Part shown: in pieces, positions 27,391 to 32,719 of the stretch
Layout of the letters: every line of letters starts with the position of its first letter
Numbering within the stretch: position 1 is the stretch's first letter
Origin: a candidate division WOR-3 bacterium
Lineage (GTDB): Bacteria; Hydrothermota; Hydrothermia; LBFQ01; DSFT01
NCBI GenBank assembly: GCA_015494735.1
Contig: WGAQ01000070.1
Location: 1-43,360, forward strand
DNA: 43,360 bases
Direction: 5' to 3'
The notes under the pieces: generated by a model
Seen by the model: the letters and a program-made list of their open reading frames with translations, nothing else
Told to the model about the DNA's origin: nothing
Databases searched by the model: none
Position numbers and translations under genes: made by a program

Positions 27391-28058
27391 TTCTGGCAGT
27401 CGATACGACGACGAAATATCTATCGTCTGCAATCGCCGATTCGCGGGGGAAAGTAATACTGGAAATCAATCAGTATGAGCCATTCATGCACGCCGAGAGA
27501 ATCAACATAATAACCGATTTCCTCATAAGAGCATCCGGAAAGCAACCATTCGATATACGCCATCTAATAATATCAGAAGGACCCGGACTGTTTACATCCC
27601 TGAGGGTATCGGCCTCCTTCGCAAAGGGGTTCGCCGTAGTGTATCCCCATGTGAAAGTGGTTGCCATAAGTTCATTCCGGGCGCTCTGGTATCCATTCAA
27701 AGGGCATAAGGTGGCGGTCCTTCTGGATGCCAAGAAGCGGGAGGTCTTCGCCTCTGCATTCGACGAAAATGGAAATGTGATAATGGAGCCGACCATAATA
27801 AAACCAGCATACCTCTATGAAAAGCTGGGAGATGAATTCCTCTATGTAGGGGAGGGGGCGGAGATTTATAGGGACATCTTCAAGAACGTACCCCCCAACA
27901 ACCCCACCTTTCCCCACGCAAAGGACATGATTCCCCTTGCCATGGAGGAGATAGAAAAGGGGAACTTCGTGGATATAGACACATTCGAGCCCCACTACCT
28001 GCGCCAGCCCGACGCAGTGGTGAAGAAGAGAGGTTCAGAGTCCAAACCATCCCCTTAG
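27387..28058 (+). CDS. tsaB: tRNA N6-threonylcarbamoyladenosine biosynthesis protein TsaB (YeaZ family)
   Basis: MILAVDTTTKYLSSAIA...ISEGPGLFTSLRVSASFAKGFA is the TsaB/YeaZ ASKHA-fold signature. ATGA overlap with nadD. Confidence 0.85.
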   Translation: MILAVDTTTKYLSSAIADSRGKVILEINQYEPFMHAERINIITDFLIRASGKQPFDIRHLIISEGPGLFTSLRVSASFAKGFAVVYPHVKVVAISSFRALWYPFKGHKVAVLLDAKKREVFASAFDENGNVIMEPTIIKPAYLYEKLGDEFLYVGEGAEIYRDIFKNVPPNNPTFPHAKDMIPLAMEEIEKGNFVDIDTFEPHYLRQPDAVVKKRGSESKPSP

Positions 28059-28622
28059 GGTTTCAACCAGTTTCCTGAATGCCCTATCGCGACAGTTTTC
28101 CACATGATTTCTGTTTACCTTTCTTGCAATTTCTCGAAACAGGGATGGACTTTGAGGTCTTCCTACTTCCCTCAGTATCTTTTCAAATTCCTCTTTGGGA
28201 CGAGATGGCTTGAAATCGTACCGGGGCACTTTTTTGCCAAATATATCCGGAAACTTATCGGCCACTCCCCAGACCCATATCTCCAGTTCCGGTTTCACCA
28301 CTATAACTTCCACGTCATCCCTCTTCCATCGCGTATTCCTGACAACATTCTCCCCGATTTCTTCCTCCAGTTCCTCTGGAAGACCCTCGAAACCGCTTCC
28401 TTCATAGTCCAGAATCACCATAGCCTTCACATAATCGTCCTGATGAATCCTGAGCACTTCATGGGCACCTTTACGAACACCTGGATCCCTGTTGGGATGA
28501 TTAATAACACGGAACTCTATTGCTCTAATTTGTAATTGGTGCCGGGATTTCTCTTCAATAAGGGTTTCGATAACCGCTTTCATATCTTTATCGGCCACGA
28601 GAACTATAAGATCCCCCTTCAT
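28035..28622 (-). CDS. Small acidic alpha/beta protein, Toprim/DUF4276-like candidate effector partner of the upstream ATPase
   Basis: 195 aa, with no signal peptide or TM helix. Three hydrophobic-strand+acidic motifs: LIVLVADKDMK, MVILDYEGSG, VVKPELEIWVW. The start codon overlaps the ATPase stop (ATGA, 28619-28622). The 3' end overlaps the tsaB 3' end by 24 nt. The family call is by eye only. Confidence 0.5.
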   Translation of the reverse strand: MKGDLIVLVADKDMKAVIETLIEEKSRHQLQIRAIEFRVINHPNRDPGVRKGAHEVLRIHQDDYVKAMVILDYEGSGFEGLPEELEEEIGENVVRNTRWKRDDVEVIVVKPELEIWVWGVADKFPDIFGKKVPRYDFKPSRPKEEFEKILREVGRPQSPSLFREIARKVNRNHVENCRDRAFRKLVETLRGWFGL

Positions 28623-29899
28623 AACACCCCGCTTGCTATAAGACTATCCATGGAAACTTTTTTCTTCCAGTCCCTCAACTTGGGATGTACATTCCCGCGA
28701 ATTATATCAGTGGAACCCTTTTTCGTCTTTCCAAATATAAGCAAATCATGAAGTTCAGCCATAGCAAGAAAAACAGGCGAATGGGTGGCAACCAGAATTT
28801 GGTTTCCGCTCGTATAACCTCCCTTCAGGGACTGAAAAACCCCCTCTATGGCAAGGGGATGGAGTCCATTTTCCGGCTCTTCTATCATAAAAACACGCTC
28901 TCTGCGAGGAAGATACGGTATTATACTGAGTGCAAGGAATCGAAGGGTTCCATCCGAAAGAAGCCATGAAGGGGTGTCCAGGCTATACCTGTATTTGACA
29001 TTCAGATAAATGAAATTATTCTCCGGCAGTTTCCTCACATCTATGTCTTCTACATCGTTCAGGAATTCTTTCACATGGCTTACCCACCAGCGGAATCTTT
29101 CAGGATGCTCCCTCCTGAGAATATCCACAACTTTTGCAAGATTGGAACCGTCGGGGCGAAATCTTCCAGGGGTGTCAGGTGGTATTGGTTTCCTCATGGC
29201 ATCCGTATTAAGATGCATGAACACAACATTCTCTCCCAGAAGTCCCTTGAACCACAAAGAAGCCCTGAATCGATTTATATCTTCCAGAATTACGGACAGG
29301 AGAGACCTTCGGGGATCTATATCGAAATTCACATTGAATTTACTCGTTTCGGATCTCATATGCACCCTCGAGCCATATTCCTTTCTCCTTGCAACCAATC
29401 TATAACCGGACAAAGACCTGACATCAGCTCCCGATTCAGGAAGTATGGGTGTATCTTCCATGAGAGTGGGGAAATCGAACAGTCTGGTTCTAAGATGTCC
29501 CCTTCTGACTCTCTCGCTTACCAGATACAATTCCTCCCTATCAGGGCCAATCCCATCGTTTCCCGAAACGATTCGCACCTGATATCTGATGAACCGATAT
29601 CTTTTTCCAGTTTTCTTATTCAAATGCTCTTCTATTTCTGAAGGGATACGGGCATCTATACCGATTTCAAAAGCACTACCCTCCCCCTTCCATACAATTT
29701 CCTGGATTGTTCTTCCTCTTTTCAATACAGCACCGTGAAAACCCTCCTCCATAGTGAGAGCATCCCTCAAAAAAAGAAGAACATCGAGAAAGTTACTCTT
29801 TCCACTCGAATTGGGACCAACGAGGATGTTGAAAGATTCGAGTTCAACATTTACCCTCTTCAAACTCTTGTAATGCCTCACCTCCACCCTTTCCAGCAC
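28619..29899 (-). CDS. Soluble ABC-type ATPase of the AAA_15/AAA_21 (RecF/SMC-like, OLD/AriA/AbiL-type) class
   Basis: Walker A GPNSSGKSN, then ~280 aa of insert, then LSDGTLRFLAL (signature/Q-like), Walker B + D-loop VFMIEEPENGLHP and H-loop VATHSP. GTG 29899 (VLERVEVRHYKSLKRVNVEL) is chosen because TAAAAT lies 7 nt upstream. An alternative ATG at 29941 would overlap the polX start. Confidence 0.85.
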   Translation of the reverse strand: MLERVEVRHYKSLKRVNVELESFNILVGPNSSGKSNFLDVLLFLRDALTMEEGFHGAVLKRGRTIQEIVWKGEGSAFEIGIDARIPSEIEEHLNKKTGKRYRFIRYQVRIVSGNDGIGPDREELYLVSERVRRGHLRTRLFDFPTLMEDTPILPESGADVRSLSGYRLVARRKEYGSRVHMRSETSKFNVNFDIDPRRSLLSVILEDINRFRASLWFKGLLGENVVFMHLNTDAMRKPIPPDTPGRFRPDGSNLAKVVDILRREHPERFRWWVSHVKEFLNDVEDIDVRKLPENNFIYLNVKYRYSLDTPSWLLSDGTLRFLALSIIPYLPRRERVFMIEEPENGLHPLAIEGVFQSLKGGYTSGNQILVATHSPVFLAMAELHDLLIFGKTKKGSTDIIRGNVHPKLRDWKKKVSMDSLIASGVL

Positions 29900-29906
29900 G
29901 CCAACT

Positions 29907-29912
29907 ATTTTA
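29907..29912 (-). promoter_or_regulatory. -10-like box TAAAAT, 7 nt upstream of the ATPase GTG
   Basis: Minus strand reads tttaaaatagttggcGTG. Confidence 0.45.
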
Positions 29913-29926
29913 AAGCCACGGAGCAG

Positions 29927-29932
29927 TAAAAT
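29927..29932 (+). promoter_or_regulatory. -10-like box TAAAAT, 7 nt upstream of the polX ATG
   Basis: agcagtaaaattaaattcATG. The box is only 14 bp from the oppositely oriented ATPase box. Confidence 0.5.
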
Positions 29933-29939
29933 TAAATTC

Positions 29940-31694
29940 ATGGACAACAATCAGAAACTGGCAAAGATATTCGATGAAATCGCAGATGCTCTCGAATTCC
30001 TGGGAGAAAATCCATTCAAGGTCAGGGCTTATAGAACTGCCGCCCGGATTCTCGAGGGGCTGGATAAGGACATAAGCTGGTATATCGAGCACAACAAACA
30101 GATCAAGGGAATAGGAACCTCCCTCAGGGCAAAGATTAAGGAATTTCTGGAAACGGGGAAGGTCCGAAAACACGAGGAACTGCTCCAGAAGGTGCCGAAG
30201 GGTATATTCGAGGTAATGGCGATTCCCGGCGTGGGACCAAAGACAGCGAAGATTCTATACGATAAATTCGGTGTAAAGAGCATAGAGGATTTGAAGAAGG
30301 TGCTAGAAGACGAGAGAATCTACCAGCTCAGGGGGTTCGGTCCGGGTAAGGTGAAGAATATAAAAGAGGGACTGGAGCTCTACGAGAAAGCCCACAGCAG
30401 ATTCCCGATAGGATTCGTCTACCAACCCATTATGGAACTGAAGGACAGAATTTCAAAAATAGAGGGGGTCCATCGAATAGCCGTCGCAGGCTCATTCAGA
30501 AGGATGAAGGAGACGGTGGGGGATATCGACATACTCATAACCACAGACAGACCCGCGGAAGTGGGAAACGCCATTGTGAATCTCCCCAATATAGAGAGGG
30601 TTCTCCTCAAGGGTATGACGAAAATCTCCTTCATCTATACTCTTCCCCGCGACCAGCTCATACAGGTGGATGTGAGAATCGTCAAGGATGAGAACTGGGG
30701 AGCATCCCTCATGTATTTCACAGGCTCGAAGGAACACAACATCGCAGTCAGGGACATAGCGATAGAGAAGGGCTACAAGTTGAACGAGTATGGCCTCTTC
30801 AAGGATGTTCATGTAATCGCCAGCAGGACGGAGGAGGAGATTTACGAAGCACTGGGCATGCAGTATATACCCCCGGAGCTCAGGGAAAACAGAGGCGAGA
30901 TAGAAAAGGCTCTCCGGCACGAGATTCCACGACTCGTTGAATTGAAGGACATAAAGGGGGACCTTCAGGTCCACAGCGTATATTCCGATGGACAGATGAC
31001 CTTCGAGGAGATAGAAAAGCACGCTCTGGAGCTGGGATACCAGTATGTGGCAGTAACGGACCACTCCTACAGCCTGAAAGTGGCAGGGGGACTCGAGGAG
31101 AGCAGGCTATTCGAAAAAATGGAGAAGATAAGGGAATTCAACAAGAAATCCAGAGTGAAGCTCCTCATGGGGGCAGAGGTGGAGATCAGGATGGATGGAA
31201 CCCTGGATTACCCGGATGAGGTTCTGAAGGAACTGGATATAGTGCTGGCATCCGTACATAACGTCAGGAAGAACGAGGACATAACACAGAGGTATCTCAG
31301 GGCAATGGAAAGCCCCTATGTAGATATAATCGCCCATCCCACCGGACGTCTGGTAACAGGCAGGAAACCCTACCCATTCGATGAGGAAAAGGTCTTCAGG
31401 ACAGCCGCAGAAAGGATGGTTCTCATGGAGATAAACGCCCATGCCAACCGTCTGGATCTAAACGACATCATGATAATGCGGGCAAAGCCCTACGGAGTCA
31501 AATTCTCACTGGGAACCGATGCCCACGGGAAGGGAAACATGTGGATGATGGTTCTGGGAGTGGGACAGGCGAGAAGGGCATGGCTGACTCCGGAAGATAT
31601 AGTCAATACCCTGGACCTGGATGAATTGATGGACTTCATAAAGAAAGCGAGAAAACACAGGGAGAAGATGTTGAAGGAATCCAGAAAACAGTAG
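29940..31694 (+). CDS. polX: Family X DNA polymerase with C-terminal PHP (3'-5' exonuclease/phosphoesterase) domain
   Basis: 584 aa. The N-terminus has the lyase-domain-like HhH segment (LAKIFDEIADALEFLGENPFKVRAYRTAARIL) and the HhH motif IPGVGPKTAKILYD. The palm has GSFRRMKETVGDIDILI. The PHP domain has DLQVHSVYSDG...AVTDHS...LGTDAH. Confidence 0.9.
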   Translation: MDNNQKLAKIFDEIADALEFLGENPFKVRAYRTAARILEGLDKDISWYIEHNKQIKGIGTSLRAKIKEFLETGKVRKHEELLQKVPKGIFEVMAIPGVGPKTAKILYDKFGVKSIEDLKKVLEDERIYQLRGFGPGKVKNIKEGLELYEKAHSRFPIGFVYQPIMELKDRISKIEGVHRIAVAGSFRRMKETVGDIDILITTDRPAEVGNAIVNLPNIERVLLKGMTKISFIYTLPRDQLIQVDVRIVKDENWGASLMYFTGSKEHNIAVRDIAIEKGYKLNEYGLFKDVHVIASRTEEEIYEALGMQYIPPELRENRGEIEKALRHEIPRLVELKDIKGDLQVHSVYSDGQMTFEEIEKHALELGYQYVAVTDHSYSLKVAGGLEESRLFEKMEKIREFNKKSRVKLLMGAEVEIRMDGTLDYPDEVLKELDIVLASVHNVRKNEDITQRYLRAMESPYVDIIAHPTGRLVTGRKPYPFDEEKVFRTAAERMVLMEINAHANRLDLNDIMIMRAKPYGVKFSLGTDAHGKGNMWMMVLGVGQARRAWLTPEDIVNTLDLDELMDFIKKARKHREKMLKESRKQ

Positions 31695-31702
31695 ATTTTC
31701 GC

Positions 31703-32665
31703 CTACACTATTTCCAGTTGCAACATCCGGAGTAGTTGTTCGTAATCGTATGCCAGGGACCTGTCCAGATTATCGAAGGAATATCTAACAGGCAATATAA
31801 TGGATCGGAAGGGTAAGGATCTGGGAAAATCCTTTGCCACCAATATGCCTCCCGCCACTTCGGAGCCCATTTCATCCATATAACCCTTCAATTGTTCGAA
31901 ATCCTTTCTCGAAGCCCTGCCTGTTTTCACCTCTACGAGCAGGTACATATTCCGCGCAGATGGATGTCGTGGTTTTATAAAAATATCTACATAACCTTCC
32001 GGAAGAGCTTTTTCACCAAGTACCTCCATTTCGCCGGAAGAACCCTCTATTCCAAAAATTTCCATCGCATTCTGCAGGACAGTCTTTCTGATTTTCTTCC
32101 TCACCAGCGATTGGAGTATAAGTTCCCTGAAATAGAATTTCTCCGGAATATGCTGATTTCTTCTGTCGAACACAATTCTGGGTATGAAAGGTTCCGCATC
32201 CAGTTCCAGAGGTTCTGGTTGACCGTGAGATGGAGTCCCCATTTCCGACACTTTATAAAAGGTAATCGTATCTGCATGAAAATGCGTCTTCCTGTAGCCT
32301 CCCCGCAGGAGCAAATTCTCGGCAACATACGAAAACTCCGGTCTGACCATGGACTCCTCGAATTCCCTCTTCTGCTGTAGAAACAATCTGAAGGGAAAAC
32401 TATATGTTCGCCCCGATTGAAAGGTGATAGGAGGCCATGGAGGAAGCCTTTCGGCATTCCTGTAAGCGACTTTCCTCACCACCTGATATAGATTTCTCAC
32501 CCTGCCTCCATACAGAAACGATATGTAGTCTCCAATTTCTATATCGAGAAAAGTCCACAGCCCATTTATACTGCTTGTAAATCCCGCCATAGCATATTTT
32601 ATACATAGATCCAGATTTTTCCTGTTGGAAACGGAAACGAGGAAATAAGCATTCTGTTTGCCCAT
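31703..32665 (-). CDS. PUA-like (EVE/ASCH-type) reader domain fused to NucS/DUF91-like PD-(D/E)xK nuclease domain; candidate modification-dependent restriction enzyme
   Basis: 320 aa. N-terminal [24 protein letters not shown]...[22 protein letters not shown] has an EVE-like strand/helix pattern. The C-terminal [10 protein letters not shown]...[24 protein letters not shown] carries D...E-x-K and a downstream QL..Y, as in NucS-type nucleases. A TAAAAT box (32679-32684) lies 13 nt upstream. Confidence 0.5.
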
Positions 32666-32719
32666 TCCGTGTTCGGGAATTTTATACCATTACACCAGCC
32701 CCTTTAAATTTATCGAACT

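Follow-up and report, generated by a model that had tools for sequence, protein, structure and literature searches.

In the 43,360-nucleotide contig WGAQ01000070.1 of a candidate division WOR-3 bacterium, to which we refer at its full length as the window, we analysed a gene on the minus strand (positions 31703-32665, stop codon included, ATG start) that encodes a protein of 320 amino acids. We think it reasonably likely that this protein is a single-chain, modification-dependent DNA endonuclease (type IV or type IIM-like) with a role resembling that of DpnI, which probably reads N6-methyladenine (m6A) in the sequence G(m6A)TC via a PUA-like pocket. The protein combines two recognisable folds with an intact nuclease active site, its host genome has no recognisable DNA methyltransferase, its relatives alternate as a cassette with DpnII systems, and the gene has the distribution of an accessory gene. 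The modified base, its sequence context, cleavage, the dependence on modification and a role in defence are what we infer.

The preliminary description of this DNA, made from its letters alone, had proposed a PUA-like reader in the N-terminal half and a NucS-like PD-(D/E)xK nuclease in the C-terminal half, and both proposals are borne out by predicted structure. An AlphaFold model of the full-length protein has a predicted local distance difference test score (pLDDT) of 89 and a predicted template modelling score of 0.86. In Foldseek searches of the PDB, the N-terminal domain (residues 1-150, positions 32216-32665) matched the EVE protein PH1033 (1wmm, E 3.9e-5), dozens of YTH m6A-reader domains and the EVE protein Atu2648 (1zce), all with a probability of 1.0 and with template modelling scores (TM) of 0.5-0.63 when normalised to the length of the target. 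The domain contains an invariant AGFTxSxNGxW motif (residues 27-37) and a further sequence block at residues 110-129. Ten of its aromatic or polar residues (F29, N34, W37, F50, Y52, Y60, W77, F82, Y88 and F90) are invariant in 79 sequences of the family, a pattern compatible with a putative pocket for a modified base.

The C-terminal domain (residues 158-320, positions 31706-32194) was modelled separately, with a pLDDT of 95. Its closest structures are EndoMS (5gke) and NucS (2vld), both with a Foldseek probability of 1.0 and at 22-23% identity, followed by MspJI, Bax1, Cap4, AspBHI and BamHI. The Pfam profiles NucS_C, PDDEXK_9 and NA-iREase1 match residues 214-278 of the window protein below their curated cut-offs, and match 34-36 of 36 family members. 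A profile alignment to Pyrococcus abyssi NucS pairs GYVD(227)...E(245)VK(247)...Q(258)LxxY(262) with the NucS catalytic motif. The catalytic core, GYVD(227)-x17-E(245)VK(247), lies at positions 31925-31987; its residues D227, E245 and K247, and the nearby E218, K219, Q258 and Y262, are invariant in all 79 family members. The preliminary description had regarded an N-terminal half outside the PUA-like fold, or a C-terminal half without an intact PD-(D/E)xK site, as fatal to the proposal. Both folds and the active site were found, and the structural reading survives.

By their defining profiles, the protein is nevertheless neither a NucS nor a DpnI. Searches with Pfam, NCBIfam and PADLOC models matched the nuclease core alone, below threshold, and left the N-terminal half without a hit. 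The NCBIfam model for NucS (NF003270) gives 21.8 bits where 216 are required and aligns only to residues 216-279, and neither the window protein nor the 36 family members match the DpnI or DpnI_C profiles. The model of the whole chain gave weak Foldseek matches to AspBHI, MspJI and EndoMS. PDB sequence and profile searches yielded no usable match for the N-terminal half, a fold search in BFVD returned nothing beyond generic small PUA-like or PD-(D/E)xK matches, and no relative of the nuclease was found in the viral contigs that we searched.

Homologues number more than 1000 at 90% clustering and form 175 clusters at 50% clustering. Among the matches listed, the top ones are 60-71% identical to the window protein and come from Thermococcus, Archaeoglobus, Thaumarchaeota, Saccharicenans, Desulfofervidus and others. 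In the 79 sequences, which extend from Thermococcus to bacterial copies, approximately 50 residues show little or no variation, and the catalytic residues are among them. The family is thus tight, and it is spread over thermophilic archaea and bacteria. Its tree consists of two clades, with the window protein in clade I beside Thermococcaceae, and as a whole requires at least 5-10 changes between the archaeal and the bacterial domain. Our literature search found no description or test of this nuclease family; fusions of YTH-like or EVE-like domains to PD(D/E)XK nucleases are mentioned in one sentence by Bell et al. 2020 (PMC7641849). One homologue, in Thermococcus thioreducens, lies about 3.5 kb from a gene for DpdA (7-deazaguanine DNA modification), in a run of small open reading frames (ORFs) near an IS605 TnpB gene (L001:3709-4491), and this locus looks like the setting of an integrated element.

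The evidence that points to GATC comes from the genes that surround the nuclease in other genomes. Our survey took in 80 loci from genomes and several from metagenomes, with methyltransferases counted over 78. Circularly permuted N6_N4 DNA methyltransferases of a single family flank the nuclease gene in about 20 of the 78, nearly always directly upstream. We aligned these copies to full-length references, namely methyltransferases linked to DpnII. The copies end at many different points, and none of the upstream ones retains the conserved 40-60 residues at the C terminus. The copies in L049, L070, L072, L054 and L015 are no exception; we had considered them as candidates for an intact methyltransferase beside an intact nuclease and rejected them on this ground. 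Full-length relatives of the methyltransferase are 78-87% identical to the stub in L015 and, in WOR-3, Dictyoglomus and another bacterium, are followed directly by a PF04556 DpnII-family endonuclease gene; this arrangement is a predicted GATC restriction-modification operon.

On the other side of the nuclease cassette, just 3′ of it, we found DpnII stubs truncated at their 5′ ends, in Calescamantes, Methanothermococcus, Thermodesulfatator and Fervidibacter. They retain residues 81-289 in L015, 184-289 in L017, 248-282 in L025, L003 and L004, and 116-283 in L090. Methyltransferase and DpnII stubs together flank the cassette in L015, L017, L025 and L090. Since the upstream methyltransferase is truncated at its 3′ end and the downstream DpnII gene at its 5′ end, the cassette occupies the junction between the two genes of a DpnII-type operon.

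The upstream methyltransferases of clade II, in Dehalococcoidia, Nitrospirota and Patescibacteria, carry an additional N-terminal extension resembling a zinc finger or helix-turn-helix (L049:132-1082, L070:239-1141, L072:1801-2637 and L054:4336-5013), and those of L049 and L070 share a single C-terminal truncation point (...GFWYEVK/S). The clade II methyltransferase retains its S-adenosylmethionine-binding and HPPY motifs, and may be repurposed or active rather than debris.

Among 41 relatives of the window genome, which belong to the same class and apparently to WOR-3, a full-length nuclease is present in 6 and a full-length DpnII endonuclease in 5, and no genome has both. In one genus of the window's order the two systems were found to exchange at a single locus: one genome (G055) has the methyltransferase and DpnII genes at L105:6916-8710, where three others (G049, G050 and G058) carry the nuclease alone. 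The DNA flanking this locus (L105 versus L106-L108) is 80-87% identical, and on both sides the homology ends 1-3 nucleotides from the gene borders. Alternation of the DpnI type is therefore found in relatives, and not at the window locus itself. A further 42 genomes with the nuclease, from many phyla, have no full-length DpnII, their strong DpnII matches being only stubs beside the cassette. In the same genomes, methyltransferase matches of more than 50% identity are likewise only stubs, with no close full-length GATC methyltransferase (M.GATC). When these sets are pooled, which does not match them phylogenetically, intact DpnII is present in 0 of about 46 genomes with the nuclease and in 5 of 35 relatives without it (Fisher p ~0.012).

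We also searched the host genome, which is 95% complete. It has no match to the methyltransferase families PF01555, PF02086, PF02384 and PF00145, no DpnII, no relative of the methyltransferase associated with the family and no copy of the small AF_1447 partner protein described below. The preliminary description had reasoned from the lack of a cognate methyltransferase in the window that the protein follows a type IV logic. That reasoning is now stronger, because the four families are absent from the whole genome and because the nuclease family is tied to the loss or replacement of GATC-methylating systems. In a host without these four methyltransferase families or DpnII, an enzyme that cuts unmodified DNA would be lethal.

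The host genome is strongly depleted in GATC, with 696 sites against the 8762 expected from a Markov model (ratio 0.079), and CTAG stands at 0.04 of its Markov expectation genome-wide. The remaining GATC sites are clustered: 20 of the 27 sites in the window fall between 28 and 38 kb, 3 of them in the nuclease gene itself. A similar concentration occurs on another contig (C59), which has up to 17 GATC sites per 3 kb at about 9-14 kb.

The nuclease gene is accessory. Its G+C content is 44.4%, versus 51.0% for the window and 51.9% for the genome (1.76 Mb), in agreement with the AT-richness noted in the preliminary description, whose ORF (including all of the peptides quoted from its translation) and 8-nucleotide convergent gap (31695-31702) to the repair polymerase gene polX (29940-31694) were also correct. 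A genome of the same genus (G043) has polX and the CitMHS transporter gene and lacks the nuclease. Its contigs stop precisely where the cassette begins and ends, so that no empty or alternative site could be recovered from it. Contigs from vent metagenomes, in four runs, also break at the borders (31650-31674 and 32690-32719). In one of these runs (X4), a contig departs to the left of 32690 into unrelated sequence, and the read depth of the nuclease is about 44 compared with about 100-250 for the flanks. The contig breaks and the alternative sequence at the cassette borders thus suggest that the locus is polymorphic in the natural population, by presence and absence or by alternative cassettes. 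The alternative junction of run X4 had no exact match in metagenome contigs, and the alternative allele was not recovered. Near-identical sequences of the nuclease gene occur in hydrothermal-vent metagenomes from four studies, so the gene is not an assembly artefact. When the DNA of the window gene is compared with that of its relatives, homology ends at the ends of the ORF, and therefore no donor flank can be traced.

In the mechanism that we propose, the N-terminal domain, with its fold of the PUA superfamily (EVE/YTH), would flip a modified base into its conserved, aromatic-rich pocket. This base would most probably be N6-methyladenine in a GATC context, of the kind made by Dam or DpnII-type methyltransferases. 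The NucS-like PD-(D/E)xK domain, with D227, E245 and K247, would then cleave the DNA nearby. Methylated DNA arriving from neighbours with the alternative M.GATC and DpnII cassette, which is present in 5 of the 41 relatives, would be destroyed. We propose that the host's own DNA is spared because no recognisable DNA methyltransferase is encoded and because the genome is nearly free of GATC. As the nuclease gene stands, in relatives, at a locus otherwise held by a GATC-methylating restriction system, the enzyme most likely cuts foreign DNA that carries the methyl mark.

In many loci the nuclease is accompanied by a small gene. In 18 of 32 clade I loci, a protein of about 80 amino acids (Pfam AF_1447; MKKRLFxFITPDGVTYSS...) is encoded 3′ of the nuclease, for example at L001:8954-9190. 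A homologue with 47% identity is found 3′ of a gene for a protein with PLDc and DpnI_C domains (L091:272-1407), and toxicity that depends on Dam methylation has been reported for this architecture (PMC11037411). The AF_1447 protein may be a common accessory factor of m6A-dependent enzymes. In clade II, the position just 3′ of the nuclease is taken by other families of small ORFs. Two unrelated families of small ORFs without a Pfam match fill this position in other lineages, with examples at L022:5959-6201 and L049:2069-2260; one family starts MVEVD...WIAEGK...DVIYWD and the other is a CxxC...CxCG zinc ribbon.

Several observations weigh against an m6A-reading, DpnI-like enzyme. On the side of the protein, no EVE, YTH, ASCH or SRA Pfam profile matches the window protein or the 36 family members at E<=1, and the putative pocket residues could not be mapped onto the cages of YTH or EVE domains. 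In HhiV4I, moreover, it is a winged-helix domain and not the PUA domain that senses m6A (PMC11037411). On the side of the genomes, the statistics of exclusivity are weak, since the 41 relatives alone lack power (Fisher p = 1). Two loci, L086 and L075, retain a near-full-length methyltransferase downstream of an intact nuclease. These are the only copies that keep the C-terminal block, and that of L075 also lacks the N-terminal 45 or so residues. The truncated upstream copies of L049 and L070 retain the S-adenosylmethionine-binding and HPPY motifs and, to judge by these, might still be active. The methyltransferase and DpnII stubs could all go back to one ancestral insertion that then spread, in which case they would record history and not repeated incompatibility. 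Finally, the window copy itself has no methyltransferase or DpnII stubs and no AF_1447 partner.

Some of these observations would be accommodated if the nuclease depended on a different mark, such as N4-methylcytosine, 5-methylcytosine (5mC), 5-hydroxymethylcytosine (5hmC) or a hypermodified phage base, and shared its locus with DpnII because that locus is a defence hotspot or received one historical insertion. The N-terminal domain fits EVE readers as well as YTH readers, and the EVE domain of VcaM4I binds 5mC and 5hmC; the whole chain also resembles the 5mC-dependent enzymes MspJI and AspBHI. The possible descent of the stubs from a single event and the two loci with a near-complete methyltransferase can be read in the same way. 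What such a mark would leave unexplained is that the link is specific to one operon type, M.GATC with DpnII, across no fewer than 5 phyla and also at one locus where a swap is seen, and that the partner protein is common to an enzyme with a DpnI_C domain. We regard another mark as a possible but clearly less probable explanation.

The same stubs could be given a more active part. The nuclease, with the AF_1447 partner where this is present, might be a mobile anti-Dam cassette that actively displaces DpnII-type GATC operons in both archaea and bacteria, using the stubs as homology arms to recombine into an intact operon in a form of epigenetic homing that resembles a gene drive. The m6A-dependent nuclease would eliminate chromosomes, competing cells or phages that are still GATC-methylated, and the small partner might delay the nuclease while methylation is diluted out. 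We consider this idea speculative and rather unlikely.

The proximity of the catalytic domain to the mismatch endonucleases EndoMS and NucS could instead suggest a thermophile repair nuclease that is specific for damage or structure, that is, a cutter of the NucS/EndoMS type guided by a damaged-base pocket. The family is indeed largely found in thermophiles, its conservation (about 50 invariant residues) is unusual, and the window gene adjoins polX. However, adjacency to polX occurs in no other locus and the N-terminal domain of NucS is absent. A repair function also agrees poorly with a sporadic, accessory distribution (6 of 41 relatives, and absence from the same-genus genome), with many transfers between archaea and bacteria, and with alternation with a restriction system at one locus, and we judge it improbable. 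We also considered a Vsr-like repair function, in which nuclease and methylase would act together against deamination, and rejected it, since the methylase belongs to the amino-methyltransferases and since the nuclease occurs sporadically and trades places with a restriction system.

The ancestral gene order, methyltransferase and then nuclease, is that of type II systems, and a conventional type II endonuclease could have outlived its methyltransferase if the GATC-depleted host (0.08 of expectation) offers it hardly any sites, or none, and so tolerates it. A classical type II enzyme is accompanied by an intact cognate methyltransferase in the same genome; here the host has none from the four families searched, the relatives have only truncated upstream copies, and the 42 further genomes have no close full-length copy. 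With 696 GATC sites remaining in the genome, 3 of them inside the gene, with the four main methyltransferase families absent from the host, and with dozens of lineages that hold the nuclease under strong constraint while the methyltransferase is truncated or gone, an orphan type II enzyme is very improbable. Least credible is an enzyme acting on RNA, with a YTH-like reader of m6A or another RNA mark and a PD-(D/E)xK RNase: most structural neighbours of the N-terminal domain are RNA m6A readers and type IV-like systems directed at RNA have been suggested (PMC11090510), but the genomic linkage is to an operon of a DNA methyltransferase and a DNA endonuclease, and DNA is the substrate of all the closest nuclease folds. 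In sum, repair, an orphan type II enzyme and RNA cleavage fit poorly with a host that lacks methyltransferases, a nuclease that occurs sporadically and a specific link to a DNA restriction-modification operon.

If the enzyme is methyl-dependent as we propose, it would work like DpnI and be built like MspJI, while belonging to neither family, given that their defining profiles and domains are not found in it. The logic that we predict is that of DpnI and the alternative DpnI/DpnII cassettes of Streptococcus pneumoniae, in which one polypeptide with a PD-(D/E)xK domain cuts G(m6A)TC in a host without GATC methylation, and its cassette lies at a locus where relatives hold a GATC methylase and a DpnII-family endonuclease. 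In those cassettes dpnD follows dpnC, which can be likened to the small protein of unknown function 3′ of the nuclease in much of the present family. DpnI differs in having a C-terminal winged-helix reader, whereas the reader here is an N-terminal PUA-like pocket domain. The present family also has a NucS-like nuclease, is spread over archaea and bacteria, and has a specificity that is a prediction. With MspJI, AspBHI and LpnPI, which are 5mC-dependent type IIM/IV enzymes combining an SRA-like domain with a PD-(D/E)xK domain, the protein shares the order of domains, and the nuclease domains are structural neighbours. However, no sequence relationship was detected, the whole-chain TM is 0.17-0.18, the reader is nearer to EVE and YTH than to SRA, and the predicted mark is m6A and not 5mC.

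Other systems resemble the window protein in one of its halves or in principle. The YTH-like N-terminal domain of Thermococcus gammatolerans McrB is a reader of the PUA superfamily, intermediate between EVE and YTH, that serves in a thermophile in restriction of m6A-containing DNA (PMC7641849); the window protein is similar in this respect, but is a single chain without the McrB GTPase or McrC. NucS/EndoMS mismatch endonucleases have the same catalytic-domain fold and D-ExK motif, whereas the gene studied here is accessory and not part of core repair. The EVE-HNH enzymes (VcaM4I and TspA15I) and the m6A enzymes with winged-helix (wH) domains (PLD-wH and wH-HNH) follow the same principle of a reader joined to a nuclease (PMC6765204, PMC7897488, PMC11037411), and the PLD-wH type shares the AF_1447 partner gene with the window family. 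Both modules of these fusions, reader and nuclease, are unlike those found here.

The region upstream of the nuclease gene contains the TAAAAT box that the preliminary description had placed at 32679-32684 (read on the minus strand from 32684 to 32679), 13 nucleotides ahead of the ATG. In a consensus scan this box pairs with a TTTAAA at 18-nucleotide spacing, with 9 of 12 consensus matches (TTTAAA-18-TAAAAT, positions 32679-32708, minus strand). With this site, the leader would be very short and would lack a clear Shine-Dalgarno sequence. Because the 2 promoter-like sites in the region represent no excess over chance (mean of 2.3 in shuffled sequences), we treat this promoter as a candidate only and not as established.

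A pair of genes resembling MAD4 (28035-28622) and MAD3 (28619-29950) lies 1.75 kb from the nuclease, on the minus strand; their NCBIfam scores are just below the equivalog cut-offs (158.7 versus 160 and 412.8 versus 420). Such a pair is a split OLD-type ATPase and Toprim nuclease (PMC13662399). PADLOC also assigns HEC-01A to the pair. The longest MAD3 ORF, starting with TTG at 29950, overlaps the start of the divergent polX gene (29940) by 11 nucleotides; since the NCBIfam alignment starts at residue 19, the real start is probably about 17 codons further in. No other MADS gene accompanies the pair. We considered whether the nuclease itself belongs to a MADS system as MAD2, and rejected this assignment because the PADLOC mad2 match is only local (25 bits, model positions 6-81 of 492), and because the MAD3/MAD4-like genes stand alone in a genome without the methyltransferase families searched for. 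The same-genus genome G043 has a deletion corresponding to positions 28200-29776, and of the two genes only a 3′ stub of MAD4 and a 5′ stub of MAD3 survive there.

Two points are of particular interest, a predicted m6A reader of the PUA type in a single chain with its nuclease, and alternation in the style of DpnI and DpnII over archaea and bacteria. If our interpretation is true, the family would constitute a new and widespread group of m6A-dependent restriction enzymes with a PUA-like pocket reader in place of the winged helix found in the characterised G(m6A)TC enzymes. With approximately 50 invariant residues, it is a good target for structural study of how a PUA-like domain could read adenine methylation in DNA. 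Its members would be naturally thermostable methyl-dependent nucleases, and thus DpnI-like reagents for use at high temperature. For the organisms themselves, it would mean that the either-or population strategy of the pneumococcal DpnI and DpnII systems extends across thermophilic archaea and bacteria and moves between the two domains.

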